Origin: an uncultured bacterium
GTDB taxonomy: Bacteria; Patescibacteriota; Microgenomatia; UBA1400; UBA12108
Reading direction: 5' to 3'
Length of the DNA stretch: 64,000 nucleotides
NCBI GenBank assembly: GCA_903945195.1
Contig: CAJAUT010000009.1
Span: forward strand, 23,231 to 87,230
Notes under the pieces: model-generated
Database searches by the model: none
The model's input: only the letters and a program-made list of their open reading frames with translations
Told to the model about the DNA's origin: nothing
Translations under genes and position numbers: made by a program
In this document: piece after piece, positions 27,626 to 59,437 of the stretch
Numbering within the stretch: the first letter of the stretch is position 1
Layout of the letters: each line of letters begins with the position of its first letter

Positions 27626-27648
27626 AATATGTTAAACTGATGTTCATA

Positions 27649-39399: not shown

Positions 39400-39477
39400 T
39401 TCTGGATTTTAACACAAGAAGAGTGGATTTGTCACGGTGGGAGATAGTTTAGATATATTGTCTAGTGTGGAAAAGTT

Positions 39478-41087: not shown

Positions 41088-42185
41088 ATGAAAATAGAAG
41101 TTTTGCAAGAACAGCTCGTAGCCGGATTTAATATAGTGGGGAGAGCTGTGGCAAGTAGAGCTCAGCTACCCGTACTTTCTCACATCCTGATAGAGGCTAA
41201 AAATGAAGGGTTAGTATTGTCTGCGACAGACCTAGAGATAGGAATCAAAATAAAGGTGTCTGCAAAAGTGATAGAGCCAGGAGTGGTAGCGGTACCAGCC
41301 AAGATGTTTGGGGAGTTTTTGGCATCACTTAATCCTGGAAAGATAGAACTTAAGTCTGAAGGAGAATCTCTATCTTTGAAGGCACCTGGGTATAACGGGA
41401 AATTCCAGACTATAAATGCAGAAGAATTTCCTTTGATCCCAGAACTTTCCACAGAAGCCGAGATTTGTACTTTAGAAGCCAAGGCCTTGTCCACTGCCGT
41501 ATCTCAAGTCGTGTTTGCCAGCGCCAAAGATAGTTTACGCCCAGTGCTGACGGGCGTGCTCTGGGAGTTTTTGAAGAAAAAGGTGAGACTGGTAGCGACT
41601 GATGGGTTTAGACTGGCAGTGGAAGAGATCTCTGTCGACACGAAGACTGAGCTGACAAGTCTACTTGTCCCATCTAGAGTGGTGATGGAAGTGGTGAGAC
41701 TGGCTGGGGAAGAAAAAATCATAGTTGGACACTTACCAGCGACTAATCAGATTTATTTTGTGGTGGGTGAGACTCAGATAGTGTCTCAGCTATTGTCTGG
41801 TAATTTCCCGGACTATAACAAGATTTTGCCAAAGGAATTTACGACTGAAATCAAAGTGAATAAAGACGAGCTTTTGCAGGCTATAAAGGCGACTCATATC
41901 TTTGCTAGAGATAACTCTAATATGGTGAAGTGGCAAGTAGCTGAAGAAAAGCTAGTACTCTTGTCGAGTTCTCCAGAGCGAGGGGAATGTAGAGTAGAGG
42001 TGCCAATTACTCTGACTGGAGATGATATTGAGATAATATTCAACGCCAAGTATGTCCTTGATTTTTTGGGAATTGTCGGAGGGGATACACTGTGGATAGG
42101 ACTAGGAGGGAAGCTGTCTCCTGGAATGATTAAAGATGTCGCGCGTGAAAACGGGCAGTATGTGGTAATGCCGATAAATGCGTAA
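41088..42185 (+). CDS. dnaN: DNA polymerase III beta sliding clamp
   Basis: 365 aa from MKIEVLQEQL, typical three-domain beta clamp (the track start at 41061 gives 374 aa). Confidence 0.9.
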   Translation: MKIEVLQEQLVAGFNIVGRAVASRAQLPVLSHILIEAKNEGLVLSATDLEIGIKIKVSAKVIEPGVVAVPAKMFGEFLASLNPGKIELKSEGESLSLKAPGYNGKFQTINAEEFPLIPELSTEAEICTLEAKALSTAVSQVVFASAKDSLRPVLTGVLWEFLKKKVRLVATDGFRLAVEEISVDTKTELTSLLVPSRVVMEVVRLAGEEKIIVGHLPATNQIYFVVGETQIVSQLLSGNFPDYNKILPKEFTTEIKVNKDELLQAIKATHIFARDNSNMVKWQVAEEKLVLLSSSPERGECRVEVPITLTGDDIEIIFNAKYVLDFLGIVGGDTLWIGLGGKLSPGMIKDVARENGQYVVMPINA

Positions 42186-42194
42186 ATCTCCATT

Positions 42195-42281
42195 AAGATC
42201 TGACCCGGTCTCCTGATTGTGTTTTGAAGTCGACTAAACATCTTGGCCTTTGGCCAGGATTTCCTTAGCGGGTCAGACCTT
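42195..42281. repeat. MITE family A (copy A6), intergenic between dnaN and virB4
   Basis: agatctgacccggtctcctgattgtgttttgaagtcgactaaacatcttggcctttggccaggatttccttagcgggtcagacctt. The track ORF 41894..42298 is its translation. Confidence 0.8.
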
Positions 42282-44210
42282 GGGGGTTGGTTGTTCAAAG
42301 ATCGGAGATGATTCTTCTTTAGCTTTGGGTTCGACTGGCTGCGGTTCGACAGTCGGGGTGGATGCTACTGGTGCGGCCGGAGAATTGGTTTTGGTGGAGA
42401 GGAGTTTGTCGGCAAAAGCTTTTTGACGATCTAGAGTTTCTTGAGGATTGGTGGTGATCAAAATGTGTTCTTCGGGAGAAGCAACGACCTTCATAGCCAC
42501 GTGATTTTGGCCGGCAAAAAATAGAGCCTCTCCAACTTCGGCGGTGAGGAGTAGATGTCTTTCTCCTTGTGAGAGGAAGAAGGTTGTGGCCAACTTTTCT
42601 ATAGCGCTACTAGATTGCTTCATGAGCACCTGTAGGGAGGAGTTTGAGACGATAGCCTTGCCATGGTCGCTCTTTAGGAAGTCCTCGACGTCCTGGGTGA
42701 TTGTAGTGAGTCCCAGGAAGTATTTGCGGGCGCGCTTGGCTATGCCATAAAGGAAAGTGGCGGAATCTTCGGATTTCATGAGATACCACGCCTCATCGAC
42801 CACAAGTAGTCTTTTCTTGAGATCTCTTTTAACCTTGGTCCAAATATAATCGAGAATGATGAAAATGGCAGTTGGGCGGAGCTCGTCTGTTAGATTTTTA
42901 ATACCAAAAACAGTGAGCTGATTGCCAAAGTTGACGTTGGATTTTTGGGAGAAAATCCCTTGGAAAGAGCCCTTAACATATTTTTCGAGACGATCGGCGA
43001 GTCCACGAGCTACGGCTTCTTCCATGCCATTTAGGACTTTGTATAAATCTTCCATAAGCGGAGGTTCGTTTTTGTGGGTGGCAGGGTCCCGATTTATTCC
43101 CTTCATCTGATAGGTCATAACGAGTGCTCGATCAAGTAATGCTTCTTCTTGTGGACTCATAGTACCCATCATGATTTTGAGGAGTGAATGAAGCGAAATG
43201 ATTTTCATGGCTAGTTCGTTTTCGTCTGGCTCGTCCATCTGGGGAAGCTCAAAAGGATTAATACGGTTGGGGGAGCCAAAGGAAAAGTCGATATAGGTGC
43301 CCTTGATGGCGTCGGATAATTTGCGATATTCATCTTCTGGGTCGATGACAATGACCTCGGTATCAAAAAGGAGGGAGCGAAGGATTTCTAGTTTGACCAT
43401 ATAGGACTTACCAGAACCAGATTTGGCAAAAACCACCATGTTGGCATTTTCGAGAGTGAAGCGATCAAAGACGACGAGCGAGTCATTGTGTTCGTTAATG
43501 CCGTACATTAGTCCTTCGTTGGCTGTGAGTTCTGAGGAGGTGAAAGGGAAGGTTGTGGCGAGACTGGTGGTGTCCATATTGCGATTCATTTTTAGTTTGT
43601 CTAGGCCCGTGGGGAGCGTGGTTTTAAAGCCATCTTCTATTTGAAGGCTTGCGGTTTTGGCGACAATGAGGAGCGCTCCGAGAGCGGACTTAATGTGATT
43701 GGTGACCCGGTCTAGGACGTCCTTTTTATCATCGCGGATGGTGATGTAGAGCCCAAACTGGAAGAATCTCTCGGCACCTTTGGCTAGTTGTTCCTGAAGT
43801 GAGCGAGCATCTTCTAGCTTGACTTGAGTGTCGATATTGATGATGCGACCTCTTTGAATGTCTCCCTGAAGCTCTGCTTCCATTTCGGCGATCTTGCGGC
43901 GCAGATCTTCGATGACGCCTTTACCATCAATAGGATAGATAAACATGGAGATGGAGAGGGAGTGAGGGAAATTGATGAGGGGGGAGAGCCAATTGGCGTT
44001 GACGAAACGGGGATAGCCAGCGACAAAGAGTGTGCGATAGTAAGTGTCGTTGATTTTGATGTCGCTCCAGTCGACCTCGATGGCTTCTGGAGCAATGACA
44101 TCTTTGACATTGGTGGTGCCCTGAGAAAGTACTGTGACTGCAGTAGAGACGGCCGGTCCAGAGTTTTTTGAGTCGTCTTTTTTGCCACCAAGGGAGAAGG
44201 GCAGTTTCAT
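42273..44210 (-). CDS. virB4: Type IV secretion system ATPase VirB4/TrbE/CagE family
   Basis: Walker A VFAKSGSGKSYMVK, Walker B LLVVDEAWYLMK, 645 aa, CagE/TrbE-like C-terminal ATPase domain. Confidence 0.85.
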   Translation of the reverse strand: MKLPFSLGGKKDDSKNSGPAVSTAVTVLSQGTTNVKDVIAPEAIEVDWSDIKINDTYYRTLFVAGYPRFVNANWLSPLINFPHSLSISMFIYPIDGKGVIEDLRRKIAEMEAELQGDIQRGRIINIDTQVKLEDARSLQEQLAKGAERFFQFGLYITIRDDKKDVLDRVTNHIKSALGALLIVAKTASLQIEDGFKTTLPTGLDKLKMNRNMDTTSLATTFPFTSSELTANEGLMYGINEHNDSLVVFDRFTLENANMVVFAKSGSGKSYMVKLEILRSLLFDTEVIVIDPEDEYRKLSDAIKGTYIDFSFGSPNRINPFELPQMDEPDENELAMKIISLHSLLKIMMGTMSPQEEALLDRALVMTYQMKGINRDPATHKNEPPLMEDLYKVLNGMEEAVARGLADRLEKYVKGSFQGIFSQKSNVNFGNQLTVFGIKNLTDELRPTAIFIILDYIWTKVKRDLKKRLLVVDEAWYLMKSEDSATFLYGIAKRARKYFLGLTTITQDVEDFLKSDHGKAIVSNSSLQVLMKQSSSAIEKLATTFFLSQGERHLLLTAEVGEALFFAGQNHVAMKVVASPEEHILITTNPQETLDRQKAFADKLLSTKTNSPAAPVASTPTVEPQPVEPKAKEESSPIFEQPTPKV

Positions 44211-44256
44211 ATATTCAAAGTATACAGTACTGCCCTTAGTACCAAAAGGGCTTGGG

Positions 44257-44895
44257 TTATTTGGTAATATTGGGGGCGACTATGGCTTGTTCGTAGTCGG
44301 AGGCTGTCGTGAACTTTTGACCTTTGACCGTCGAGTTATAAAGTGAGTGGAATAGCTTCATGAGATTCTGAGAGTTTACCTGTTCGGCAGCCAGTCCGAT
44401 TCTACTCAACTGTTTAATGATGTGGTCCCTTTTTGGTTCTAGATCGGCCTTGGCTTTTTGAATTAAGTCTTCAGTTATTTCTACTTTTCCAGAAAGGGTG
44501 ATGATTTGGTATGAAACTATCAAATAGAACTTTTTATCCAAAACATTTTGCTCTGTGATTGTAGTATCTATAAACTGGCGATAATTGTGCATGCGCTCTT
44601 TGAGAATTTCATCTTTAAGCTTTTTTTCTTGTGTGGCTAGTAGTTCTAGATAGGCGCTAATATCTTTTTTTTCAGATTTGATGACTATTTGAACCGGGAA
44701 AGAAAGGGAGTTGAGTAGTCCGGCATAGGCATAAATAGTCGCGTCTTGCTCTTCTTCAGATAGTAAGCCAAAATTGATTGCGGAAGTCTTTATGACAACA
44801 CTACAGATGCCGTTCTTTAGAATAACTAGATCATCTCGAATTGTTTCGATGTCTAAATGATCTTGGGTTGTTGCGACAATGATTGAGTCAGACAT
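44257..44895 (-). CDS. Hypothetical soluble protein in the T4SS operon
   Basis: 212 aa, no TM and no motif recognised; position between the PrgI-like gene and virB4. Confidence 0.35.
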   Translation of the reverse strand: MSDSIIVATTQDHLDIETIRDDLVILKNGICSVVIKTSAINFGLLSEEEQDATIYAYAGLLNSLSFPVQIVIKSEKKDISAYLELLATQEKKLKDEILKERMHNYRQFIDTTITEQNVLDKKFYLIVSYQIITLSGKVEITEDLIQKAKADLEPKRDHIIKQLSRIGLAAEQVNSQNLMKLFHSLYNSTVKGQKFTTASDYEQAIVAPNITK

Positions 44896-44951
44896 AAATA
44901 TTAGTATAACCTAAAATCACAAATCCTAAATTCTCCAATTCTCAAATTATT

Positions 44952-45953
44952 TTAAACTGTAACTCTTAACTCTACGGGTGAGAGGATAGTGTTATTTACG
45001 ACTATTTGTTGTGGAGCAAAAGTGAGGCCCATCTTATCTACCTCTATCACATAGGTGGCTGGGGAAAGAGGCGTGGAAGTATAAAATTGGCCCAAGGAAT
45101 TGGTTTTCATTGCCCGCTGGGGGATTCCGTCGCTACTGACTATTTGGACAATGGCATTTTCTATCAATTTCCCGCTTTGATCTACCACAGCGCCAGTAAT
45201 TAAATTGGGATCTTTGGGGGAGGCGGGAAGAGATATATTTTTTGGGGCAGTTCTTTCTGGGGCGGCACGTGATTGGGGGGCTGACGGGGCTGTAAAGATG
45301 GTGTTTGTAACCTGTTTGACTAGTCCTGGCGTCACAATGACCGCTTCTTTGGGAATGGGGGTGGAATCTGGAAGTGGTGTATGTAAGACAATTCCTGCGA
45401 CCTCTGTGGCAGGATTCAATTTTCTAACCAAGATTGAAGGTTTGGTAATTATTTCTTCTACTTTTTTTAGCGTCGAATCTGTCTGAGTGATTTGAGGCAC
45501 AGAACTAAATAAGCCATCTAGAGATTTTACGATACTAGCCTCCTTCTCGGTTAAGTCTGAGATGGATGACTGATTACTAGCGGCTACTGGAGCTTTGATG
45601 GTTTTTGTAATGGTGGTGATGACTTCTGGAGCGTGGGCCTCAAATAAAAACAGTCTAGGGATTTTGTTGGTTTTTTGCCAGGTGAATCTTGTGGGAGCAT
45701 AGATGGATTTGATAAAGTTGATGATCCACTGATCGAGGGGGCGATCTTCTAGAGGGAAAAATGCGAGTCCGGCTCCAAAGAGGAGAGAGAGGATAACTAG
45801 TGGCCATTTGACTATAAAAATAAGATTACTGGCAAAGAAAAGATAGGCCAATACCATACCGCTGGCTAATTCTAAGAACTGTTTAAGGGTCATGTCTCCT
45901 ACCAGGCGAAACTGGTATTGAGTGACATTTTGTGGGATTGGATGTTGTTGCAT
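44952..45953 (-). CDS. PrgI/VirB3-like two-TM protein with a C-terminal Pro-rich linker and beta-sandwich-like domain
   Basis: N-terminal GDMTLKQFLELASGMVLAYLFF...WPLVILSLLFGAGLAFF resembles the PrgI-family FGLTxRQ + 2 TM pattern; C-terminal carboxypeptidase-regulatory-like fold guess. Confidence 0.4.
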   Translation of the reverse strand: MQQHPIPQNVTQYQFRLVGDMTLKQFLELASGMVLAYLFFASNLIFIVKWPLVILSLLFGAGLAFFPLEDRPLDQWIINFIKSIYAPTRFTWQKTNKIPRLFLFEAHAPEVITTITKTIKAPVAASNQSSISDLTEKEASIVKSLDGLFSSVPQITQTDSTLKKVEEIITKPSILVRKLNPATEVAGIVLHTPLPDSTPIPKEAVIVTPGLVKQVTNTIFTAPSAPQSRAAPERTAPKNISLPASPKDPNLITGAVVDQSGKLIENAIVQIVSSDGIPQRAMKTNSLGQFYTSTPLSPATYVIEVDKMGLTFAPQQIVVNNTILSPVELRVTV

Positions 45954-46011
45954 ATATTAACAGTTTATCAGAGAATCATTACGCTACGCACGCGCAACAC
46001 TAGACAAAGAT

Positions 46012-46635
46012 TTATTTTTTTGTAGCTGGTTGAGCAATTTTGTATTGATGAGAGTCTGGAGCGAGTCCATTTTGGGTCACCCAAGCCTTGGCTTGTAGAA
46101 TAATGTCTGAGGGGGTAATTTTTGAGTCCAAAATGGTGATCTCTAAAGTAAGGGGGGCACTATAAACCAGTGAATATCCCTGTGTAAAGCGTGGAGTTTC
46201 CCCCATTAATGGATATTGAGCATCCATTTTGTCTTGGACTTGTTGGAGAAATCTGGGATCTGTTTGTCCCGGAGCTGTACTAAAAGTATAGATTGAAACT
46301 ACCTGGTCTAAATACTTGATAGTTAAGACGTATTTTGTGTTTAAGTATAAATATTTTTTGTGACTTAGGGATATGGTTTGTTTGTCGACTTGATTGATGG
46401 TCCAATTCTCATCTGGACTAGATGCAATAGAAATATCTGAGGCCAATATAGATTTATTAAATTGTATTTGAGGATTTATCATTACACTATTTTGCGTAGA
46501 TTTATCGAGAGGAGTTGTGGCCTCAATTGTTATTGGAATGGGCCTGTATGACATAGGCAATAAGATTAAGGTACCCAGAAGAATAATTCCTATAGAGAAA
46601 ATTATTAGGTTTTTTCTTGATAAATATTTATTCAT
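46012..46635 (-). CDS. Hypothetical secreted/membrane-anchored protein
   Basis: 207 aa, N-terminal signal/TM (LIIFSIGIILLGTLILLP), no motif. Confidence 0.35.
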   Translation of the reverse strand: MNKYLSRKNLIIFSIGIILLGTLILLPMSYRPIPITIEATTPLDKSTQNSVMINPQIQFNKSILASDISIASSPDENWTINQVDKQTISLSHKKYLYLNTKYVLTIKYLDQVVSIYTFSTAPGQTDPRFLQQVQDKMDAQYPLMGETPRFTQGYSLVYSAPLTLEITILDSKITPSDIILQAKAWVTQNGLAPDSHQYKIAQPATKK

Positions 46636-46644
46636 AGTTTTATT

Positions 46645-49512
46645 TTACTTCTTTCTAAGGCATCCACTAATAAGAGATTTTGCGTAAAAACAACCCGATG
46701 TCCCAGAATCTGGGCGTACTATACCAGGGCCTGTGGCGTTGGCATCTACACAAGTAAATTTTTGACCTCCAGCATCTGGATTGATTACAACCCCTATGTG
46801 ACCGACAGTTTTATCACCACACTCATCTACTCCCATGATAAAAAGATCTCCTGACTGCATATTTGGACAACCAACCAAATATTTATATCCTTCTACTTTA
46901 TATGAGGCGTACATACAGGCATTTACTTGCGGAAAACCTGGTCCGGCGCTAGCGGCCGCCAATCCAACACACTGAAGATGTTTTTCGGTTGTTGGCCAAC
47001 CATCTGTAAATTGTGAAGTTTCTAGTTGAGAGACTGCGCCTTCAAATGGCTTCAGAGCAGCAATAACACACTGCCATTTTGGGCTAGATATGCCGCCTAT
47101 CATGAGGGGATTTAACTTACAGTCGGTAAGAGCTTTGTAGATACATTGGGCTGCGTTTGCGACTGGATTGTTTGTAGTAGTGCCGCTTATGTCACAAACA
47201 ACGGAGGCACCAATAGTTCCAGTTTCTATTTTTGAGGTGATGATGGCGTCGTTGCCAAGAGACATGGAAAGAGTGATGCCTCCAACTGCAACAACAATAG
47301 AGGTTGTGGCTATAGAGCTAATAGTGGCGCCTACACTGTTTACAAATCCAGCCCACCAAGCGCTAACTAGTGCTCCTGCAGAGCCAAGCGCCGTAGAAGC
47401 CCAACCAGCGATTGCTCCTGCTTGAGAATATAAATATCCTAGTAATGCTCCAAGTGCAGTCCCTATCATAAGTACTCCCCATAGTGGTAAGGAAAACCCA
47501 ATGAGGAAAAATGAAACTAGGGCCACACTAAAGCCAATGATTGCACCGAGGATTGTGGGACCAGCTATCCCCATGAGCATGGCTAGTCCAGCAATGTTTT
47601 TGAGTACCCAACCCGCAATGACGTCTGCATTTTTTATCGCTTCTGGTGCTCTTTTGGCTTGTTGCATGACCCAGAGTCCAGCCTGGATGGCAAAAGATGC
47701 CCCTCCAGAAAGAGATCCAGCAACTAACCCAGCGCCCACCCAAGCTAAAAACTTCCCGGCAAGTTTTTCTCCACCAATTTTGGCGCCTTGTTTGACTAGC
47801 CAGTTGCCAAATTTGATGCGGAAGTGGGTTTTTGCTGAACCAATAAATCCTTCATACGAATACCCACCATTTTTGTACCAAGTGAGTCCTGTTTTGAGCC
47901 ATTGCGGCAGGTTTTTATTTGTGGCAATTTTTGAAATCCATCCACCCCATGATGCCAGTCGATGATCTGAAGAAAGAAAAAAAGCGATAGTTCTATGATT
48001 GTTTAAAAAACCATTATATGCTGTAGAAATACTTTCTCGAACACTGGTAACGGCGCCATAAACATTTCTGATAATAGGGATGTTTTGTGGGGACAGGGCG
48101 GTTTTGATTTTAAGAACGGCTTGATCGTAGGCGAGCCTAGATTTGTAGACACTGTCAATTAGGCCATGGTTTTCGCCGAGATATTTTTGAAGGTTGTCTA
48201 ATTGAGATTTGATGTCAGACGGGCTATATCCAGATTTTAATAATTGACTGGCAAGCTGTTCTCCCGAATAACCACTTCTGGTTAAAGTGACGATTAGCGG
48301 ATCTACGCCAGAATTTTTGGCAATGTGTGAGACTAGGCTGGCTGGCCTTAATCCTAAAATATCTGGTAAATCTCCAGCACTTGGTTCTAGGCCATTGGTA
48401 ATGCGGGCAAAATAAGTCCCAGTAGAGGGGTGATTGAGAGCCGCTTCTATAAGTCGATCTTGATCAACTTGTGTTAAATTGTATTTTTTGATTAATTCTG
48501 GGGTGATGGCGTTGCGCAGAGCCCTAACTTCGAAAGGGTCTTTTTTGATAAATCTATCGCTAAGCGAGGGCGATTCTAATGCATCAATAGTTGCTGAATG
48601 TAGTGATTTAACTAGATCATTACCCAAAGAATTTGGGTTGTCTCTACCCACGCCAGTCTCTTTTTGCCAGGAATTGATGGTGTTTTGAAGCTCATCTTTG
48701 GCCTGCGTGGGAGTGAGACCATGTTGTTTGTTGATATTTGCAAGACTTTCGAGATTTTCGTCTGTGTCTGATTTACTGAACCTCTCATTGTTGAGGAGAG
48801 TTGAGAGGTTTGTGGTGATATGGTCTACGTCCTGCCCTTCGGCAACGAGCGTGTTTTGGAGGGCTCTCCAGGTTGGAGAATTGGCTACGGCTTGATCTAG
48901 GAGGGCCTTGGTTTGGGCCTGGGCTTTAACTGGATCTGTAGTATCTATATTGTGAAGGGCGGGTGATAGTTCGGCTATCAAACTATTTTGCATTTGTCTG
49001 ATGTAGCCTGAAGAGGCCGAGCCAGATCTAGTCAGTGGCTCTAGAGCCTGTGCGACACGAGAATCTAGGAGATTTTTTGTTTGCCAGTACTTTTGAGCCC
49101 GCCTAACGGATTCGTTGTAGGCATTGATCTCGACCTTTGGATTTGTGGTTTTTTGGTCAACTTCTTCTAGGTGTGTTTGGTAGGCCCGGAGGATGTTTTC
49201 TCTGGTTTCTCTATCTGGGATGGAAGACTCTTTTTGTTTGTTGGCAAAAAGCAAAATACTATTGTATAGAGGGCGATAATTGGAGGGATTTTCCAGATCT
49301 AAAATCTTATCGCCAAGGAGGTTGTTGCGCTGGAAATCATCGACCAATGCTTTGACTTCACGATTGGTAAAGACGACTTTGGAGTCGCCGCTACCCAGCT
49401 CATAATCGTCTTTGGGGTGGCGGATGAGCTGAGAGACTAGTTCTAGCACTCCAAAAGGGGTACCAAAATTGCGAACTAGCTCTGATTTGGTAAGGTTGGC
49501 CATATACTCCAT
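46645..49512 (-). CDS. Large T4SS-associated protein: N-terminal soluble region, VirB6-like polytopic membrane segment, C-terminal CHAP (NlpC/P60-like) peptidoglycan hydrolase domain
   Basis: 955 aa; Gly/Ala-rich TM cluster in the middle (GLAMLMGIAGPTILGAIIGFSVALVSFFLIGFSLPLWGVLMIG...); C-terminal Cys...His arrangement (LQCVGLAAASAG...GCPNMQSGDLFIMG...GHIGVV) typical of CHAP domains. Confidence 0.55.
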   Translation of the reverse strand: MEYMANLTKSELVRNFGTPFGVLELVSQLIRHPKDDYELGSGDSKVVFTNREVKALVDDFQRNNLLGDKILDLENPSNYRPLYNSILLFANKQKESSIPDRETRENILRAYQTHLEEVDQKTTNPKVEINAYNESVRRAQKYWQTKNLLDSRVAQALEPLTRSGSASSGYIRQMQNSLIAELSPALHNIDTTDPVKAQAQTKALLDQAVANSPTWRALQNTLVAEGQDVDHITTNLSTLLNNERFSKSDTDENLESLANINKQHGLTPTQAKDELQNTINSWQKETGVGRDNPNSLGNDLVKSLHSATIDALESPSLSDRFIKKDPFEVRALRNAITPELIKKYNLTQVDQDRLIEAALNHPSTGTYFARITNGLEPSAGDLPDILGLRPASLVSHIAKNSGVDPLIVTLTRSGYSGEQLASQLLKSGYSPSDIKSQLDNLQKYLGENHGLIDSVYKSRLAYDQAVLKIKTALSPQNIPIIRNVYGAVTSVRESISTAYNGFLNNHRTIAFFLSSDHRLASWGGWISKIATNKNLPQWLKTGLTWYKNGGYSYEGFIGSAKTHFRIKFGNWLVKQGAKIGGEKLAGKFLAWVGAGLVAGSLSGGASFAIQAGLWVMQQAKRAPEAIKNADVIAGWVLKNIAGLAMLMGIAGPTILGAIIGFSVALVSFFLIGFSLPLWGVLMIGTALGALLGYLYSQAGAIAGWASTALGSAGALVSAWWAGFVNSVGATISSIATTSIVVAVGGITLSMSLGNDAIITSKIETGTIGASVVCDISGTTTNNPVANAAQCIYKALTDCKLNPLMIGGISSPKWQCVIAALKPFEGAVSQLETSQFTDGWPTTEKHLQCVGLAAASAGPGFPQVNACMYASYKVEGYKYLVGCPNMQSGDLFIMGVDECGDKTVGHIGVVINPDAGGQKFTCVDANATGPGIVRPDSGTSGCFYAKSLISGCLRKK

Positions 49513-49536
49513 TCTATCATCTGAGAATGGTATAAT

Positions 49537-52500: not shown

Positions 52501-52887
52501 CATAAGCTAACTAGACGCGTACCAAAACAATCTGGTGGATATGTCCTGCCAAATGGTGACCTAATGGTGAACAAATATGGTAGGTGGGAAAAAGAGATGA
52601 AGACTGAAATTTTACTCCCTGGAGAAAGTTTGATGAGTAAGTATAAATATCTTGTGACTTGGGGGTTTGAAGATGTAGAGATGTCAATGAGGTTTTTGGT
52701 TGGTAGTGGGATATTTACAAGAAAAGATGGCGATGCAGAGCTGTTTAATCGGTTTGGACCAGCGGCATGGAGATGGTTGCGTAGAGCTATACAGCTAAAT
52801 GACTGGGAATATTTCTGGATCCAACTAGAGAAGGATGGGAACGAAGAAATGAAAAGCGTCTTTAAATATATATTTTCAACAAAATAA
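49537..52887 (+). CDS. Very large hypothetical protein (1116 aa), divergent from the CHAP gene within the T4SS locus
   Basis: Long open frame with a Lys/Glu-rich coiled-coil-like N-terminal 300 aa; no Walker, HUH or other motif recognised; the only plus-strand gene in the 42-59 kb locus. Confidence 0.5.
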   Translation: MGMAEKEKLSEVKELERMVRSGETDASGEDKDGLKFLEQLMVFMKLKLLRKTTETGGVKKETIDNLEKDLLGSDKDKKEKANLNLESLLKKMVGIETGIENQSIDVLIAKAKMPEDQRDHATALEMRVIELKNGEYTGDKKAEAESITKGFLQISESVGILKTGEKTKEQIVTKLNAELSEVNEIKRKLEVVKVKEEVKTEKGAKERVNVAKSKTLEFVNKELKDGKDRVTKVRVGKSDDRRGRLLQKDIDDFLKVVQTEVNDPRQMEDLKSDDCIDRIYKINQLARLASKMQSPSLATDNFFEMQIPYMDQLKNKLKDDKIQNGEEVYKFVQEVWYSKKLPNPEELGKKLLNITSGKRGEETARTTTRRDGSKKDGADLLYENGEDPLQFIQDALGFEQKSRRAPGSIMLEQIKDLLENNGLDVIKLEGTFKGRSREEFAQAMQMKYGFEPNQAGLLYDSIFKNRTAFRNEAFTKYLESKDYKGYTGALISYLSKVGLREGMNDLQLMSLMNDARFTLAEAGPEGEKLLKVFKSFESIAFFHDKYFNLGAKEYSEILNHLGDGPLWVWLQEHADVLREEITFTEGPKRGEKASVSVLEIHDMMQSQYWSKRLVYTPPIREGELFDEMMLSHLLNGDEPIVIKENGDIFDMNKKLLGNKNHDLMVDGQPKSLAALITDSRWKVGTAQDIWRFTGRNLNILDDVDIAKALGVNKALLGISKICRYSEQYEFISSYQHEIMGADTFLYDFDWYKNTFGKGLKKLFGEAGIEAKQAELIQKLISKHIMSKRRVGTEVFDGSNLAIEDVKLLASGSKRMTFDEAKTEYLGRLAKRGEDISKIRIDPNDASDKYAMQVNLLMEKWNDNAFSEDEMAQINALPWDKINKIYAKRLGKESSAVGNDFKGFIDNFSYARLSEYVESLRGTDMKDYGGYYAIAAEAVAGAIKAGLANGSSEALAKMIGAMETYHPYDANGLNRLGLAMWREVLTWRTHKLTRRVPKQSGGYVLPNGDLMVNKYGRWEKEMKTEILLPGESLMSKYKYLVTWGFEDVEMSMRFLVGSGIFTRKDGDAELFNRFGPAAWRWLRRAIQLNDWEYFWIQLEKDGNEEMKSVFKYIFSTK

Positions 52888-52902
52888 TTTAAGTTAAAAA
52901 GT

Positions 52903-54417
52903 TTATTTGGCTTTTCCGCCTGGTTCTTGTGGAGCACTACTGAGACCTGTGTTGCGGATTTGATTTCCAAGCATTTTGGATTGGAGGCGGGCTGCGCGCT
53001 CTTGCTGGAGACTGGAGATGTAGGCTTTGGGTAGGTATGAGGCTGCGCCATAGCCCTGTCCAATACCAGCCATGATCTCTGAGGTGTATTTGCTCTGCTC
53101 GACCTTTAGCGTGTCTCTGGTCATTTGGGCAGCTGCTGGGACCATCATAATGATAAAGATACCCAGGAGTGCCATAAAGGTTTCTTGGATACTAACTGGC
53201 GTGGTTACTTCAGAATTGTCGACAAAAGATAAAAATGGTGGAACCCATCTGGTAGAATCGGTCTCTCCACCCTGTAGATATCCCGTATTTACCTCGAATG
53301 GATTTACTTGATTACCTTCAATGACTAGTTTTTCTGTACCAGGTCCCATCAGTATGGCTCCAAATAATAACATGGCTAGCACTGTGGGGAAAACGGCTGC
53401 ATTGGCTAGTAGATTTCTAGCCCAGTTGGAAAAAGATTTTGATCCAGGTATACCGTTCATTAGTAGTTGAAGGGGAGACACCACAGTTAGGACGATGATC
53501 ATAAAGTATGACTGCATCAATTGCCAGAGAGTCTTGAACATGCCAATAAGTACTCCTAGTCCTATCACGGCAAATGCTAGTCCTTGAGTGACTCCACCTA
53601 GTTTGGCTAAGCCACTAGAAGCAGTGATTTGGTCTGTAAAAGAACCAATGGCTAGGGCTGCGATTGTGTGGATTCTATCTCTACCAGATAACATCATATA
53701 CATGATGTTGTTGTTTAACACTTTATCCATCACTCCACCCGCATCTTTGATGAGACTTCCAGCTTCGGCGATATAAACTATTAAATACATAGATAAGTAA
53801 ATGAGGTCAACAATAAATCCCGCAATGGCGTACGAGAAGGTAATGAGTAGAAGAGTGACTAGTAAGTTGGGGAGACTATTTTGGATGGAAATGATGGTTT
53901 GAGCATTTATCTTTGTCCTGAGCATGATCATGACCCCGATAACTAAGAAGATTATGATGTAAAGAGAATAGGCTACATTTCTAAAAGCTTTCCAGATTTG
54001 TAAGACTGGAGATAGTGCTTTGTAACCAATTCCTTGAGCTTGGACTTTGGTAAATCCAGGAAGCCCAATATTGTTGCCTAGATCGGCGAGATATTCGCCC
54101 GTATTGATTGGTGGCACCATAAGCGCAGTTGTAACGTACTTGGTAATTCTAGGTGTGATGCCAGAAACTGCTTGAGATCCGTCGGCAGAAGGGGAGTAAC
54201 CAACAATATATTTTTCTTGCGACATTTCTTCTGAACTGACAGTGGCACCAATGTCTGAATCTGGTGAGCAGCCGCTGACGTTGCATCCTACGGCAAAAGT
54301 ATAGGTTTCAAAAAGTCCACGACTAGGGGCGACTTGTCCATCTGCGGCGCGCGCCATTGTGACAAAAGAAAATGCGGACACGAGAAGGAGTGTAAAGATA
54401 GATAGTATTTTACGCAT
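52903..54417 (-). CDS. VirB6/TrbL-like polytopic membrane protein with a signal peptide
   Basis: 504 aa; signal peptide MRKILSIFTLLLVSAFSFVTMARA; at least 6 TM helices with Gly-rich segments; no enzymatic motif. Confidence 0.5.
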   Translation of the reverse strand: MRKILSIFTLLLVSAFSFVTMARAADGQVAPSRGLFETYTFAVGCNVSGCSPDSDIGATVSSEEMSQEKYIVGYSPSADGSQAVSGITPRITKYVTTALMVPPINTGEYLADLGNNIGLPGFTKVQAQGIGYKALSPVLQIWKAFRNVAYSLYIIIFLVIGVMIMLRTKINAQTIISIQNSLPNLLVTLLLITFSYAIAGFIVDLIYLSMYLIVYIAEAGSLIKDAGGVMDKVLNNNIMYMMLSGRDRIHTIAALAIGSFTDQITASSGLAKLGGVTQGLAFAVIGLGVLIGMFKTLWQLMQSYFMIIVLTVVSPLQLLMNGIPGSKSFSNWARNLLANAAVFPTVLAMLLFGAILMGPGTEKLVIEGNQVNPFEVNTGYLQGGETDSTRWVPPFLSFVDNSEVTTPVSIQETFMALLGIFIIMMVPAAAQMTRDTLKVEQSKYTSEIMAGIGQGYGAASYLPKAYISSLQQERAARLQSKMLGNQIRNTGLSSAPQEPGGKAK

Positions 54418-54443
54418 AGTGGTATTGTACTAGATTTTACATT

Positions 54444-56990
54444 TTACTTACAGCTATAACTTTCATAATAATCAAATGCCCGTTTCCAGTGATTGTTGTC
54501 TGCTGTTTGAGCTCCTGATGATCCTCCAGGTCCTGAGTAAGCAGCTTCTGTACAGTACCCAGTATATTGACGCATAGAAGTGGATATTCTTTCTGGTGTC
54601 CACTCGCACGAGTTGGCTGGACCAGTAGCACTAAGATAGAAAGGATGTCCCCAACATGATGCTGGAGCAGGATACGCTCCTGACCCACCACTTTCTTTGG
54701 CTAGCTTGGCGGCTGCGGCAAAGGTGGCATCAATCACGTTGCATGGTGAGAACTCTACTCTTCCAGAGTCAATGGCTTTTGATGATTCACTATAATCTGG
54801 AGACCAATCATATTTACCACCACCCTTTGGGGTAGACAAGAAAGCAAATGGACCTCTTGCTCCTGTCCCAGATGCTAGTGAATCACAATTTGGTACTTCG
54901 CCTCCGCAAACGCTCCAAGCCTTTACGTTTGCCTCAGTCCAATCCCAACGATAATCACCGCCCTCAGAAATAAATGCACTATATAAAATAGATGCGGGAA
55001 CCTTGTAAGTGGTGGCAGCCAAATTAAATATTTTTACTAGAGTTGGGGGAAGTCCCGAATCACACAACGAACAACTGAGATCTGAGCCACTTAAATCTGG
55101 AAGTTCGGTGGAGCTACAGGTATTGATTAATTTGGAAGGTTGGCCGCAGGAATTGACGGCAGTGCCATCTGCGATCATGCGCGGGGTATAAATGTAATCT
55201 GATCTATCTGTACCTTTGCAAGGCATGAAAGCGGAGTTGTTTACTTTTATGGTTTTAGACAATCTTTCATTCATGCCAAACAACTCTCCTTCTTTTGAAA
55301 CCACAACATTGATATCATTATTTGTTTTCAAATATTCCTTAGATAGTTCGGTGGATGGCATGAGATTTGCTAGAGATGGGAGCTCGAGAAATCTACTGGC
55401 CTGAGACCAGGATTCGCCGATCATATAGGTGCGTCTTTTGTTGGGGATTACTTTTAATAATATCTTCATTGAGATATCAAATAAGTTGGTCATGGAGGGC
55501 TCACCGTGCACCGCATTAGCATCTTGCTTGTTATAGTCTTCTTCGGAGGCTTTTGGCCTTCGAGGCGGTGGATTTTTCTCTGGATTATATAATCTATTTG
55601 GATAATCTAGTATAGAGCCAAGCTTCTTAACTGTTAGTGGTCCATATCTAGTCACAGTGTTTTCGGGAGTGGCTGATTCGGCCTCGGCGTCTGTGTTGTT
55701 ATTGCCAAAAACCAAGGCAGTTGGCATGTGAGTGACGTCTGCTCTTGGCTCTGCAAAATAATTTGCAACTAGAGGAATCTTTTTCCCCATATCTGCCAAT
55801 AGGGCCTTACCAATTGCTCGCGGATTAGTAAGTGATGCTTCGATAATCATTCCCTCTGTTGCGGCTCTAGCAGAATAATTGTCTACCAAGGTACCTTTGT
55901 GAAGAGCGAAGTTGTATTTGCCAGACGTATCACTTTTACTGCCAAGTGCTAAAACTAGCGACCCGATTGATAAGGCAGGAGCATTTGTGTCTTTAGGGTA
56001 GAGGGGGGTACATTTGAAATATTTTACCCAATCCTCGTCATTTTTTTCGGCAAGTTTAAAGTTGTATAACCACTTTGCATACCAAGTGCTGTTTTGGAGA
56101 TAGCTGGGAACAGGGCGAAGCGAGGGATTTTCTGCGGCTCTAAACTCTGCATCTATTTGTTCTTGACTGAAGCCTTCTGGTAGTGGGGCGGAAAGATCGT
56201 ATTCTGTTTGCCAAATTTGTCGATAGTTTTCTGGCTTCATGTCTCCTGGTATTTTATCGTTGTAAATATCGATAAATTCGAGAGTTTCTCCATCTATTGT
56301 TACTTTTTCTTTCCAGTTGATTCCTCCTACAGGGAGCTCTTTGTGAGGATTGTTACTTTTTTGATAATTGATCCAGGTGGAAAATGCTCTCCATAGCAAA
56401 CTAAGCCTTAGTTGATTTTGATAATCAGAGGGCAATATCATGTCGTGTGAGCCCATGGTAAGTACGTTTGATGACTGAGAGCACTGATTGGCGGTGAACA
56501 TGTGATTGTAGCTTTGCCAACCTGGGACCGCGAGCCCATCAGTCCCACTTGAGTCGGTGCCTATAAATTTTTTTGAGTATGCTGGACTTTGATTAAATTT
56601 ACATTTTCCCTTTGTAGAGAGTGGATTTTGCTTGTTTACCATTCTTTGACATTGACCAGTGATGGGCCTGTCTTCCTGTCGATCATTTTGTTGTGGATAT
56701 ATAACATTGGCAATTTTGTCACACGAAGTTGGGTCTGTCGTATCACAGGTGACGTTTTTTAACTCGTCTTCGTTTAATACAATCATGGTTTCGGGGATCC
56801 CTTTTTCTCCTTCTAGAATGATTTCTAGGTTTTGATCTGCAATATATCCTGTAATCATTTGAGAATATATATCTACATCATATTTTGTTTTTGGTTGTTC
56901 TGCATTGACTCCTCGATCTATTTTTGGGAATATAACAAATAATCCCAAAAATATTAGGATAGATATTGAAATCTTTTTTAGAATAATCAT
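54444..56990 (-). CDS. Large secreted Cys-rich hypothetical protein
   Basis: Start taken at the internal Met (MIILKKISISILIFLGLFVIF, signal/TM) to avoid a 70-bp overlap with the upstream paralog; about 848 aa; many Cys in the C-terminal 250 aa. Confidence 0.45.
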   Translation of the reverse strand: MIILKKISISILIFLGLFVIFPKIDRGVNAEQPKTKYDVDIYSQMITGYIADQNLEIILEGEKGIPETMIVLNEDELKNVTCDTTDPTSCDKIANVIYPQQNDRQEDRPITGQCQRMVNKQNPLSTKGKCKFNQSPAYSKKFIGTDSSGTDGLAVPGWQSYNHMFTANQCSQSSNVLTMGSHDMILPSDYQNQLRLSLLWRAFSTWINYQKSNNPHKELPVGGINWKEKVTIDGETLEFIDIYNDKIPGDMKPENYRQIWQTEYDLSAPLPEGFSQEQIDAEFRAAENPSLRPVPSYLQNSTWYAKWLYNFKLAEKNDEDWVKYFKCTPLYPKDTNAPALSIGSLVLALGSKSDTSGKYNFALHKGTLVDNYSARAATEGMIIEASLTNPRAIGKALLADMGKKIPLVANYFAEPRADVTHMPTALVFGNNNTDAEAESATPENTVTRYGPLTVKKLGSILDYPNRLYNPEKNPPPRRPKASEEDYNKQDANAVHGEPSMTNLFDISMKILLKVIPNKRRTYMIGESWSQASRFLELPSLANLMPSTELSKEYLKTNNDINVVVSKEGELFGMNERLSKTIKVNNSAFMPCKGTDRSDYIYTPRMIADGTAVNSCGQPSKLINTCSSTELPDLSGSDLSCSLCDSGLPPTLVKIFNLAATTYKVPASILYSAFISEGGDYRWDWTEANVKAWSVCGGEVPNCDSLASGTGARGPFAFLSTPKGGGKYDWSPDYSESSKAIDSGRVEFSPCNVIDATFAAAAKLAKESGGSGAYPAPASCWGHPFYLSATGPANSCEWTPERISTSMRQYTGYCTEAAYSGPGGSSGAQTADNNHWKRAFDYYESYSCK

Positions 56991-56992
56991 AT

Positions 56993-57274
56993 TTACAGAC
57001 CGAGCTTGAACTGAGTGACTCTGGCACCAGTTAAGTTCTCTATGAGAAGTAAAATGAGCCAACTGCCAATAGCCAATGCTATGCCGGCGATTGCGCCTCC
57101 CATGATACCTTTACCTTTTTTCATAGAATCTGGATTTCCGGCGCCAGTTAGAAAAGTAAAGCCTCCTACGAGGATCATGATGAAAGAAATAAGACCGATT
57201 AGGGGAATAATAGCCAAAAGAACATTCCCAATATATAGAGATAGATCTGAGAGTTGAGCCGCTTCTTCTTCCAT
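56993..57274 (-). CDS. Small two-helix pilin-like protein, paralog P7 (most divergent)
   Basis: 93 aa: TM1 ...ILVGGFTFLTGAGNPDSMKKGKG..., TM2 IAGIALAIGSWLILLLI; same architecture as P1-P6. Confidence 0.55.
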   Translation of the reverse strand: MEEEAAQLSDLSLYIGNVLLAIIPLIGLISFIMILVGGFTFLTGAGNPDSMKKGKGIMGGAIAGIALAIGSWLILLLIENLTGARVTQFKLGL

Positions 57275-57288
57275 GAAATCATTATAGC

Positions 57289-57315
57289 AAAAAGTCCCCT
57301 CGCGGGGACTTTTTG
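57289..57315 (-). terminator. Intra-operon rho-independent terminator between pilin-like paralogs P6 and P7
   Basis: Perfect hairpin agtcccc-tcgc-ggggact with T/A runs on both sides (aaaagtcccctcgcggggacttttt). Confidence 0.55.
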
Positions 57316-57335
57316 AATAAATTTAACTAAAGATC

Positions 57336-57686
57336 TTAGTAGGCTTTTGGTGGAGTAATGTTGCCACCCAAGATATCGATACCAAAGAAATATTGGATGA
57401 TAAGCATGACAGCCCAAGCTGAGGCTACGACTGCTAGACCAACTAGAGCAGCGGTGATACGATCGCGAGCTTCTTGAGTTTTGCCTTTGTCACCACCTGA
57501 ACTAATCCACTGAATACCACCCCAGATAAGGAACATAAAGACCATAAGAGCTGAGACAAGGAGTGCTCCTTGGACCGCGCCTTTGATGAGGGTGCCGATA
57601 TTTGTGATAGCAACTCCTTCTGGTTTGCTAATGGATAAATCTGGAGCAGCGGGGGCTGCTTGCGCTAACTTGACTAGAAATGACAT
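57336..57686 (-). CDS. Small two-helix pilin-like protein, paralog P6
   Basis: 116 aa: ...LIWGGIQWISSGGDKGKTQEARDRITAALVGLAVVASAWAV... Confidence 0.6.
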   Translation of the reverse strand: MSFLVKLAQAAPAAPDLSISKPEGVAITNIGTLIKGAVQGALLVSALMVFMFLIWGGIQWISSGGDKGKTQEARDRITAALVGLAVVASAWAVMLIIQYFFGIDILGGNITPPKAY

Positions 57687-57724
57687 ATTATTTTCTCCTT
57701 TTCTTAATATTAGTTTTTATTTTA

Positions 57725-58024
57725 TCATTTAGCAAGACCAATGCCGAGGAAGTAATCGATGAGTAGGTATACAGCCCAGGCCGAAGCCACTATAGTTAGC
57801 CCGATAATGCCGTTGGTAATTTTACCTTTTGCTTCTTCTAGCTTTCCCTTGTCTCCGCCACTCATGATCCATTGAACTCCACCATAAACTAAATACAAGA
57901 AAGTGGACAAGCCGGCTACCAATAAAATAGCTCCAAATGATTTTTGAACAAAAACTCCAAGAGATTCGTTGATTGCTATCCTTGATTTAGCTTCGGTGCC
58001 GATATTTACATTAAATGATCCCAT
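57725..58024 (-). CDS. Small two-helix pilin-like protein, paralog P5
   Basis: 99 aa: ...LVYGGVQWIMSGGDKGKLEEAKGKITNGIIGLTIVASAWAV... Confidence 0.6.
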   Translation of the reverse strand: MGSFNVNIGTEAKSRIAINESLGVFVQKSFGAILLVAGLSTFLYLVYGGVQWIMSGGDKGKLEEAKGKITNGIIGLTIVASAWAVYLLIDYFLGIGLAK

Positions 58025-58028
58025 AAAT

Positions 58029-58367
58029 TTATCCTGCTGTAGGCCAACTAAAGTTTAGTATATCCATATTGATGGCGGATTCAATGAATTTGATGATTAC
58101 ATAAGAGGCCGCTAGGATCACTAGGCCTACTAGACCTTGAGTGATCTTGCCTCTTGCTTCTTCAATTTTACCCTTGTCTCCACCAGCTGTGATCCAGGTC
58201 ACCCCGCCAAGAAGGAGATAGAGTAAAAATGCTAGCCCTCCCACCAAGATGATTGTTTGCCAAAGGGTGGCGATGGTGATAGCAAACTGACCAGCCTGGG
58301 TTTCGTTGGCAGCTCCTCCTCCTGGTACAGCTAGATTTGTGATTTGGGCAAGTGCTTTTTTAATCAT
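58029..58367 (-). CDS. Small two-helix pilin-like protein, paralog P4
   Basis: 112 aa: ...LLLGGVTWITAGGDKGKIEEARGKITQGLVGLVILAASYVI... Confidence 0.6.
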   Translation of the reverse strand: MIKKALAQITNLAVPGGGAANETQAGQFAITIATLWQTIILVGGLAFLLYLLLGGVTWITAGGDKGKIEEARGKITQGLVGLVILAASYVIIKFIESAINMDILNFSWPTAG

Positions 58368-58371
58368 ATGT

Positions 58372-58743
58372 TTATTGGAACTTTATGACTCCCGGTGAAA
58401 TCAATGATGCGGGATTTAATATGTTGATACCAAGTGCTTGTCCTACGATCCAGACTATTGAGTAGGAGAGGGTGATGACGATCATGCCGATAGCGCCATT
58501 TGTCATCATGCCCTTGGCTTTGTCGATTTTACCTTTGTCACCGCCGGCCGTGATCCAGTTGAGACCGCCTAGAAGGAAATATAAAACAAAAGCTATACCC
58601 GCTACGACTGTAAGGATGACTAGTACGTTGCTGACGAGCTTTTCTACGGCTCCCGTTGCGCCTGCTACGCCATCTCCTGGCTGATAACCTCCTGGAGTGG
58701 TAATCTTGGAAAAATCTATACCCTGAGCAAGTAGTTTTGTCAT
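58372..58743 (-). CDS. Small two-helix pilin-like protein, paralog P3
   Basis: 123 aa: ...FLLGGLNWITAGGDKGKIDKAKGMMTNGAIGMIVITLSYSI... Confidence 0.6.
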   Translation of the reverse strand: MTKLLAQGIDFSKITTPGGYQPGDGVAGATGAVEKLVSNVLVILTVVAGIAFVLYFLLGGLNWITAGGDKGKIDKAKGMMTNGAIGMIVITLSYSIVWIVGQALGINILNPASLISPGVIKFQ

Positions 58744-59099
58744 GGTGTTGCGCTCCCTGGTCCAATAATTTTGGGTGTCAATATAGCCCCTGCATTACCA
58801 AATAACACAAAGGAGATGATGCCTGTGATGGCCGCCGCTGCAACCATGATAACTAGCCCAATGAGAGAAGTGGTAATAGATTGCTGGGCAGCCTCGATCT
58901 TTTTTTGGTCACCCGCTGCAGTTATATAGCTGAATCCGGCAATCATGAGGTTAAAAAATGTCCAAAGTCCACCCACTACAAAGATGATGGTAACGACATT
59001 GGTAATAAATGCAGGCAGCCCTGTGCTGACGTCTGTATAGCCGTTTGAACCTACTTTTGTGAGTGGATTTATGATGTCTGTGCCTAGTAATCCTGCCAT
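58740..59099 (-). CDS. Small two-helix pilin-like protein, paralog P2
   Basis: 119 aa: ...LMIAGFSYITAAGDQKKIEAAQQSITTSLIGLVIMVAAAAI... Confidence 0.55.
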   Translation of the reverse strand: MAGLLGTDIINPLTKVGSNGYTDVSTGLPAFITNVVTIIFVVGGLWTFFNLMIAGFSYITAAGDQKKIEAAQQSITTSLIGLVIMVAAAAITGIISFVLFGNAGAILTPKIIGPGSATP

Positions 59100-59101
59100 A
59101 T

Positions 59102-59437
59102 TTATAAACTCGAATTAAGTATCTGTACCCCTGTAACTACCTGGATAATTTGGATAATCCAGTAGGAAGCAAAAAGTACTAATAATCCTATTATAGCAGA
59201 GGTGATAGTTTTGGTGCCTTCTTCGATCTTGTGAGGGTCACCCGCATTGGCGATGATAGTAAATCCTCCAAAAATTATCATAAAAAAGATAACTAGACCT
59301 CCGGCGACATATATGTTTGGGACGATGTTGTTGATTAAATCTCCCACGCCGGTATAGGCAGTTGTTGCACTATCTTTTTGAAATCTTAAACAGTCACCTA
59401 AATTTGTAGGACATTCCATGTTTTGAGTATAGCGCAA
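59102..59437 (-). CDS. Small two-helix pilin-like protein, paralog P1 (operon-proximal)
   Basis: 111 aa: ...IIFGGFTIIANAGDPHKIEEGTKTITSAIIGLLVLFASYWI...; starts 19 bp from the divergent sigma-factor gene. Confidence 0.55.
   Translation of the reverse strand: MRYTQNMECPTNLGDCLRFQKDSATTAYTGVGDLINNIVPNIYVAGGLVIFFMIIFGGFTIIANAGDPHKIEEGTKTITSAIIGLLVLFASYWIIQIIQVVTGVQILNSSL

Follow-up and report, generated by a model that had tools for sequence, protein, structure and literature searches.

The 64,000-nucleotide stretch analysed here (contig CAJAUT010000009.1 of assembly GCA_903945195.1, positions 23,231 to 87,230; hereafter the window) derives from an uncultured bacterium of the class Microgenomatia and carries, at 42273-59437, a cluster of genes resembling those of type IV secretion systems (T4SSs). 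The cluster consists of an uninterrupted minus-strand series of open reading frames (ORFs), with one large ORF, discussed below, encoded antisense to the others. All the ORFs named in the original prediction, which had described a T4SS-like locus here, were present where it had placed them, and identical proteins and identical gene calls were found on a public Logan contig. Profile searches, which for Pfam took in all ORFs of the window of 100 aa or longer, back most of the labels, and VirB4 is not the sole T4SS homologue recognized, since profiles also support the pilins (PF18895) and the PrgI-like protein (PF12666). The prediction erred on orientation: the cluster is transcribed towards dnaN rather than away from it, the VirB4 gene and dnaN being convergent with 87 bp between their stop codons. 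A scan of the T4SS locus for promoters and terminators returned matches at chance level.

Relatives of the 504-aa membrane protein of the cluster (p504) were found in 327 loci, counting one genome per species, of which 80 were examined with 10-kb flanks. The examined loci belong to Woesebacteria, Beckwithbacteria, Collierbacteria, Chisholmbacteria, Shapirobacteria, Gottesmanbacteria, Curtissbacteria and other Microgenomates. The names borne by the relatives, such as Microgenomates and Woesebacteria, led to the rejection of a saccharibacterial origin for the window. The recurring gene order comprises a divergently transcribed extracytoplasmic function (ECF) sigma factor gene, approximately seven pilin genes, p872, p504, an antisense giant, a p955-type gene, p207, PrgI, TrsD and VirB4.

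The gene closest to dnaN (42273..44210, minus strand) encodes a 645-aa VirB4 ATPase of the CD1110, or MPF_FATA, type. The protein scores 402 bits against the NCBIfam model conju_CD1110 (NF045971; cut-off 325) and 96 bits against P-loop_TraG (PF19044), also matches AAA_10, and displays legible Walker A (GSGKS) and Walker B (LLVVDEAW) motifs, as had been predicted. Its scores against other VirB4 models were 273 bits for that of the integrative and conjugative elements (ICEs) of Mycoplasma (VirB4_plasma), 180 for TraC-F, 122 for VirB4_CagE and 31 for TrbE, and its best plasmid relatives in PLSDB, at 30-38% identity, are from Bacillota and Actinomycetota. Judged by these scores rather than by phylogeny, the enzyme appears to be nearest to the VirB4s of monoderm bacteria (CD1110/FATA) and not to the diderm classes. 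The adjacent gene (44257..44895, minus strand) encodes the TrsD-like p212, a protein of 212 aa to which the original prediction had given no name. Its alignment covers positions 9-173 in conju_CD1110 and 106-290 in VirB4_plasma; it matches TrsD (NF041427) weakly (23.7 bits against a cut-off of 200) and has homologues of 212 aa in 25 loci. As p212 aligns to the first ∼170 positions of VirB4 models, it is a separate VirB4 N-terminal domain, VirB4 being encoded in two pieces as it is in pGO1-type systems. The next gene (44952..45953, minus strand) specifies a 333-aa membrane protein in which residues 5-89 match PrgI (PF12666) at 30.8 bits, above the gathering cut-off of 27, consistent with its designation as PrgI/VirB3-like, while its C-terminal region is a CarboxypepD_reg-type β-sandwich (PF13620, 29 bits). 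The assignment of the locus to a Gram-positive, monoderm-type (MPF_FATA-like) T4SS is supported, and agrees with the published view of the T4SSs of Patescibacteria (PMC10633639, PMC12102498 and PMC12857230).

At the opposite end of the cluster six tandem genes (57336..59437, minus strand) encode VirB2-like pilins of 111/105, 119, 123, 112, 99 and 116 aa, which match T4SS_pilin (PF18895) at 26-44 bits and reach, or nearly reach, its gathering score. A seventh paralogue of 93 aa (56993..57274, minus strand) scores 24.3 bits, just under that threshold, and corresponds to a gene of 93-95 aa found at position seven of the array in most relatives. All seven proteins can be aligned through two hydrophobic helices and a GGDxGK loop, so that the predicted pilin-like array, on the evidence of PF18895 and mutual alignment, consists of seven VirB2-like pilins. 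The first of these also displays a weak match to the Mbov_0395 family (NF045849; 25.6 bits, under the family cut-off). The array is kept in ∼70 loci and, among 31 genomes with seven-gene arrays, 92.6% of inter-genome best matches between pilins fall at the same array position, compared with 14% expected by chance. This positional agreement argues that the seven pilins are ancient orthogroups maintained in fixed order, not recent duplicates, and they are the best-conserved genes of the locus. In one Microgenomatia subclade (L047, L056, L064, L066, L069, L074, L076 and L077) the seven small pilins are replaced by two large pilin-domain proteins of 200-330 aa.

The membrane protein p504 (52903..54417, minus strand) contains a signal peptide and, according to a transmembrane scan, ∼7 transmembrane segments. 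It has no match in Pfam or NCBIfam, none of its 262 homologues carries a Pfam domain, and a 44-sequence profile searched against the PDB was also empty. The AlphaFold2 model of the protein (predicted local distance difference test score, pLDDT, of 70.7) was compared with 350,542 PDB chains using Foldseek; the four top matches were all TrwI/VirB6 of R388, with E values of 0.12-0.41, TM-scores of 0.22-0.42 and, for the best match, a probability of 0.96, values that are weak. As regards the VirB6/TrbL-like label in the original prediction, the protein is polytopic, sequence profiles lend the label nothing, and the modelled fold provides a weak but specific match, which makes p504 a candidate divergent VirB6. 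VirB6 was reported to be ‘scarce' in Microgenomatia, with divergence suspected (PMC12102498), and p504 may represent the protein that this survey found so rarely. The 207-aa protein p207 (46012..46635, minus strand) is a bitopic exported protein with one N-terminal transmembrane segment; it matches Big_5 of Pfam weakly, is kept in at least 16 loci, and its family profile matched nothing in the PDB. As a candidate identity, still unproven, p207 sits where a VirB8/PrgL analogue would be expected.

Two further minus-strand genes encode large proteins. The 955-aa protein p955 (46645..49512; 952 aa as called) comprises an N-terminal region of ∼630 aa that lacks transmembrane segments, a Gly/Ala-rich transmembrane cluster at ∼630-780 and a Cys-rich hydrolase region at ∼800-955. 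In the window copy the only match was a weak one to Amidase_5 (E=0.027). Within the 14-member family, however, six proteins match Pfam CHAP (best E=1.8e-6), and in the alignment of all 14, window copy included, the C-termini share an LQCVG...GHIG...DAN motif that contains the catalytic Cys and His as well as an Asn. The two closest orthologues, which are 76-79% identical to p955 over the first 80% of its length, end in Peptidase_M23 or Amidase_2, and among 21 positional equivalents in other subclades ten carry M23 and two CHAP. The slot is therefore occupied by a large membrane protein joined to an interchangeable peptidoglycan hydrolase, a module that is swapped among p955 orthologues. Of the predicted VirB6-like/CHAP fusion, the CHAP part is upheld by the family matches and the aligned motif, and the VirB6-like part, which would lie in the transmembrane region, was supported by none of the tests.

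The second of these giants, p872 (54444..57062; 848 aa, or 872 aa from a TTG start), was confirmed as the Cys-rich secreted protein that had been predicted, with 19 Cys and a single transmembrane segment at residues 26-44 as an N-terminal signal or anchor. The window copy has no match in Pfam, NCBIfam or the PDB and is 25-45% identical to its relatives; two Cys are invariant throughout the family, and Glu700 almost so. One family member matches SLT (E=6e-4), and the C-terminus of p872 is possibly lysozyme- or lytic transglycosylase-like. Searches of the PDB returned nothing usable with the p955 sequence and nothing significant with the family profiles of p872 and p955. Eight members of the p872 family also match T4SS_pilin and one relative has a GDSL lipase domain. 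Between the p872 and p504 homologues some relatives contain an AAA ATPase gene (L010:8350-9774 and L016:8230-9366) of the ATPase_2 plus DUF234 or AAA_14 plus DUF4143 type, indicating that the cluster tolerates insertions at this junction.

The antisense gene (49537..52887, plus strand) encodes p1116, a 1116-aa Lys/Glu-rich protein that lacks transmembrane segments and that had been described as inserted in the middle of the cluster. The positional analysis shows otherwise. Of 74 loci, 66 have an antisense ORF of 500-1400 aa after the homologue of p504, in most cases within ∼60 bp of the p504 stop codon, and 60 of these 66 ORFs have no transmembrane-like segment. A clade-specific insertion, a view based on the occurrence of p1116 itself in five loci, was dropped in favour of a conserved slot because of this recurrence. 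The occupants of the slot are highly divergent: they fall into 27 BLAST clusters, which profile-profile comparison linked solely within the near clade of the window (probability 61-97%), and the p1116 family has 11 relatives among 1.84 billion representative proteins. No match to p1116 was found in Pfam or NCBIfam. Its structural model has a pLDDT of 73.8, rising to ∼85 over the C-terminal half, and its Foldseek matches in the PDB and BFVD were confined to generic helical proteins and tape-measure proteins (probability ≤0.28). Weak matches to 14-3-3 proteins in the PDB (E ∼0.01-0.1) were dismissed as helical-repeat noise.

Transcribed divergently from the pilin array is a three-gene cassette (59457..60509, plus strand). 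The first gene (59457-59990) encodes an ECF sigma factor that matches Sigma70_r2, Sigma70_r4_2 and sigma70-ECF; the second, a 77-aa ORF with one transmembrane segment (59974-60207), overlaps the sigma stop codon; and the third is a 101-aa polytopic membrane ORF (60204-60509). The sigma gene lies beside the pilin array in 38 loci, and the two small membrane ORFs are kept beside the T4SS in ∼18-20 Microgenomatia loci. It is plausible that the three genes constitute a sigma/anti-sigma module, making the cassette a candidate dedicated regulator of the T4SS. The word ‘sigma' has no occurrence in the available text of the survey PMC12102498.

Among the genes of the locus, conservation is bimodal. 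In the same genome pairs, identity was 56-99% for the pilins, 76-90% for the TrsD-like p212, 61-78% for the sigma factor, 50-69% for PrgI and 35-40% for p504, falling to 20-32%, over part of the length only, for p872, p955 and p1116. L003, the closest relative, departs from this pattern: its p504, p955 and p1116 are 76-81% identical to the window proteins and its p872 is 45% identical. The pilins are the stable core of the system and the three giants its fastest-evolving, variable part. This contrast speaks against the pilin array as the source of antigenic or host-range variability, a role that had been suggested for it (PMC12102498). From the occupation of the antisense slot in ∼90% of Microgenomatia loci, and the divergence of its products beyond recognition between subclades, a further proposal can be derived, which we consider tentative and rather unlikely. 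Under this proposal p1116 would act in the cytoplasm as a partner dedicated to the system, either a translocated substrate or effector that also determines host range, or a replacement for the coupling protein that is not an ATPase. If true, the combination of such a partner with conserved pilins and variable giants would reverse the published idea of the pilin array as the source of variability.

The original prediction placed the locus against the replication origin. The dnaA and dnaN genes (39466..42185, plus strand; Pfam DnaA and β-clamp matches) are indeed adjacent to the cluster. Six DnaA boxes with at most one mismatch lie within 125 bp of the dnaA-dnaN spacer (40855-40979), and two further boxes are found just upstream of dnaA at 39466-39485. 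Such clustering of DnaA boxes is typical of oriC. The plus-strand GC skew, however, stays positive throughout the 64 kb, whichever strand a gene lies on and also at third codon positions (+0.1 to +0.5). No reversal occurs at dnaA-dnaN across the window, and a relative is the same in this respect. By the skew criterion the whole window belongs to one replichore, with the T4SS operon oriented head-on to replication. Thus, the gene adjacency and the DnaA boxes favour the predicted proximity to the origin, and the skew does not. The same caution applies more widely, dnaA having been the only basis for calling a locus ‘near the origin'. In the nearest relative (GCA_049286965.1) VirB4 is convergent with dnaN-dnaA-rpmH-rnpA-yidD-yidC-jag. 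The Gottesmanbacteria chromosome OY970230.1 has neither dnaA nor dnaN within 10 kb of the cluster. Across Patescibacteria dnaA, dnaN, rnpA and rpmH are enriched near virB4 (PMC12102498).

Housekeeping genes flank the cluster on both sides (rnpA, yidC, dnaA, dnaN and those for GroEL and LeuRS), and the remaining genes of the window are also of this type (GroEL/ES, LeuRS, GAPDH, PyrH, YidC, RnpA and transporters). Genes of the toxin-antitoxin or defence type are present in the flanks at 14174-15202, 20012-20992, 23572-24847 and 60506-61121; they encode a pair of proteins with Fic domains, a nucleotidyltransferase toxin of the AbiEii type, which has a gene of interest beside it, and a protein with a PIN domain, preceded by a 90-aa ORF. 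Far from dnaA, 41 bp at 27566-27606 contain three additional matches to the DnaA box, of which two are perfect (TTATCCACA); they fall between the divergent genes for a major facilitator superfamily transporter (26362-27573, minus strand) and a TrmB-like regulator (27559-28407, plus strand).

The absence of VirD4, relaxase and VirB11 genes from the window was confirmed. The Pfam scan of ORFs of 100 aa or longer detected no member of the type IV coupling protein (T4CP), relaxase, VirB11/T2SSE or integrase families, and a Microgenomatia T4CP used as a tblastn query against the window aligned with the P-loop of VirB4 alone (E=0.26). The missing VirB11 is uninformative, since Gram-positive-type T4SSs generally lack this protein; the local absence of a relaxase and a coupling protein supports the view that the locus is a secretion or contact system rather than a conjugative element. 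Three relatives do have a T4CP/VirD4-like ATPase gene next to the cluster, encoded on the opposite strand (L068:16358-18544, L072:16716-18893 and L075:16684-18879), and the L068 and L072 copies, the two that were scanned, exceed the gathering scores of TrwB_AAD_bind and TraG-D_C. Among the relatives with an adjacent T4CP is the closed chromosome OY970230.1, in which the cluster lies at ∼0.61 of 1.09 Mb. In most Patescibacteria genomes T4CP homologues are present far from virB4, and relaxases occur in only 103 of 3,035 genomes (PMC12102498).

In a rival reading the cluster would provide the transfer functions of an intact or decayed ICE whose relaxase, T4CP and integrase lie outside the window. 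Such an origin would fit the T4CP-like genes beside the cluster in the three relatives, the membership of VirB4 in the CD1110 family, which is typical of conjugative transposons, and the predominance of conjugative plasmids (2461 of 3686) among the records with a VirB4 match. It is difficult to reconcile with housekeeping genes on both sides of the cluster, with the retention of its position relative to dnaN-dnaA in a relative whose proteins are only 76-81% identical, and with a class-wide conserved gene order that fits vertical inheritance. In addition, the 64 kb contain no integrase, relaxase or tRNA-flanked boundary, and the rarity of relaxases in the survey points in the same direction. 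An ICE was rejected on the housekeeping flanks and the synteny, and we regard it as very improbable.

The locus probably encodes, instead, a non-mobile, vertically inherited, pilus-forming T4SS of the Patescibacteria clade, derived from monoderm MPF_FATA systems, that serves in contact with a host cell or in transfer to or from it. Contact or transfer is favoured over conjugation by analogy with the T4SS of Southlakia epibionticum (SEML1_0006-0019), which Wang et al. (2023, Cell) showed to be essential, including its series of pilins, and which resembles Gram-positive conjugative systems, has no recognizable coupling protein or relaxase, and was proposed to export protein or to have an alternative role (PMC10633639). 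From gene content, homology, synteny and the conservation pattern we infer a machine in which the split VirB4 (212 and 645 aa) would dock on the PrgI/VirB3-like protein and power assembly at the cytoplasmic membrane, where p504, the candidate VirB6, might form a channel or platform together with the transmembrane region of p955. The CHAP hydrolase at the end of p955 would open the cell wall locally, possibly assisted by the C-terminus of p872. The seven distinct VirB2-like pilins would then build an extracellular fibre that is either heteromeric with a fixed composition or functionally differentiated, expression probably being controlled by the adjacent ECF sigma cassette. The outcome would be pilus-dependent contact with the host, or passage of protein or other material into or out of the host cell.

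The direction of transport is not readable from sequence, and the machine could import host DNA, RNA or nutrients, like archaeal Ced or Helicobacter ComB, instead of exporting a substrate. Import would make sense of the lack of nucleotide biosynthesis in Patescibacteria (PMC10633639), the co-localization of T4SS genes with comF, recG and radA in ABY1 (PMC12102498) and the absence from the window of the T4CP and relaxase that DNA export requires, and VirB4 shows a weak similarity to CedB (NF041017, 51.6 bits, far under the cut-off). Neither CedA, CedA1 nor ComB-specific components were detected in the window, however, and in Southlakia deletion of comEC abolished competence but not viability, whereas the T4SS is essential (PMC12857230). 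A role in import is distinctly unlikely. It is also unlikely that adhesion is the sole function, the locus building a pilus by which the cell attaches to its host but translocating nothing. The exceptional conservation of the pilins and the lack of a coupling protein for substrate recruitment are consistent with adhesion, and the capacity of these systems for producing conjugative-type pili is emphasized in a FEMS review of 2025 (PMC12857230). The same review, however, indicates that type IV pili already serve adhesion in Patescibacteria, and the three fast-evolving giants, one of them cytoplasmic, have been kept in the locus even though they would be superfluous for a simple pilus.

Several considerations weigh against the preferred view, that of a T4SS for contact or transfer. 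A T4CP may be encoded elsewhere in this genome and, because such a gene adjoins the cluster in some relatives, transfer of DNA or T4CP-dependent transfer of protein is possible. The assignment of p504 as VirB6 depends on Foldseek matches with E ∼0.1 and TM-scores of 0.26/0.42, and no VirB8-like component was identified by Pfam or by the p207 profile against the PDB. The formation of a pilus is predicted from homology only, and the Microgenomatia systems are known from their genes alone.

The interpretation of the locus offered by the original prediction is correct but had already been published for Patescibacteria as a whole (PMC10633639, PMC12102498, PMC12857230), a group whose T4SS is the first shown to be essential for its bearer. 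From 3,035 genomes Quinonero-Coronel et al. (2025, Microb Genom) described a VirB4 clade of Patescibacteria nested in MPF_FATA, an abundance of TrsD, the occurrence of PrgI/VirB3, and pilin arrays of 2-11 genes, notably in Microgenomatia and Saccharimonadia (PMC12102498), and the FEMS review gives the same overall picture. The orthology of the pilins, the rapid evolution of the giants, the swapping of hydrolases, the sigma cassette and the candidacy of p504 as VirB6 were not found in the available text of these three publications. For the large, uncultivated class Microgenomatia they provide testable pointers: p504 as the candidate VirB6 gene, the pilins as fixed subunits rather than a cassette for variation, the three fast-evolving giants, including the cytoplasmic one encoded antisense, as candidates for interaction with the host, and the ECF sigma cassette as the likely regulator.

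Comparison with the T4SSs of Gram-positive bacteria (pCF10 Prg/Pcf, pIP501 Tra, CTn2 CD4xx, pGO1 Trs and ICEBs1) reveals a common set of components, consisting of a CD1110-type VirB4, PrgI/VirB3, a TrsD-like protein as in pGO1, and a CHAP or other hydrolase analogous to PrgK, TraG and CwlT; VirB7, VirB9, VirB10 and VirB11 are absent from both. Unlike those systems, the locus described here contains no relaxase, T4CP (PcfC/TraJ/ConQ) or oriT, includes VirB2-like pilins, which they lack, and is chromosomal, class-wide and apparently non-mobile. With the Mycoplasma ICEs and Bacillota megaplasmid clusters it shares the weak NF045849 pilin match and the 273-bit VirB4_plasma match, both under the family cut-offs, but the arrays in those clusters are not of seven genes and the Mycoplasma ICEs are mobile. 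The best VirB4 match in PLSDB (38.5% identity) is in Pontibacillus sp. ALD_SL1 (L084; NZ_CP062975.1, 341316-373064), where a cluster on a non-mobilizable 898-kb replicon, with no relaxase or T4CP annotated nearby, comprises a Mbov_0395-family pilin-like gene and genes for VirB4, an M23 protein of 1050 aa and a hypothetical protein of 779 aa. Its minimal architecture is thus similar, although the organism is not one of the Patescibacteria.

The closest resemblance is to the T4SSs of Patescibacteria themselves. The locus shares with these an MPF_FATA VirB4, a TrsD-like protein, PrgI/VirB3, a polytopic protein that may be VirB6-like, wall hydrolases and divergent VirB2-like pilins in tandem, together with a chromosomal position beside dnaA/dnaN and the lack of a relaxase or adjacent T4CP. 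It differs from the Southlakia system and those of the survey in having seven pilins rather than six, a polytopic protein missed by VirB6 and PrgH profiles, and a hydrolase fused to a 955-aa membrane protein; the ∼1100-aa antisense slot and the divergent ECF sigma cassette are additional features to which the available portions of PMC10633639 and PMC12102498 make no reference. With these distinctions, the locus is not a new kind of system but a typical member of the published class of chromosomal, pilus-encoding, relaxase-free T4SSs of Patescibacteria.

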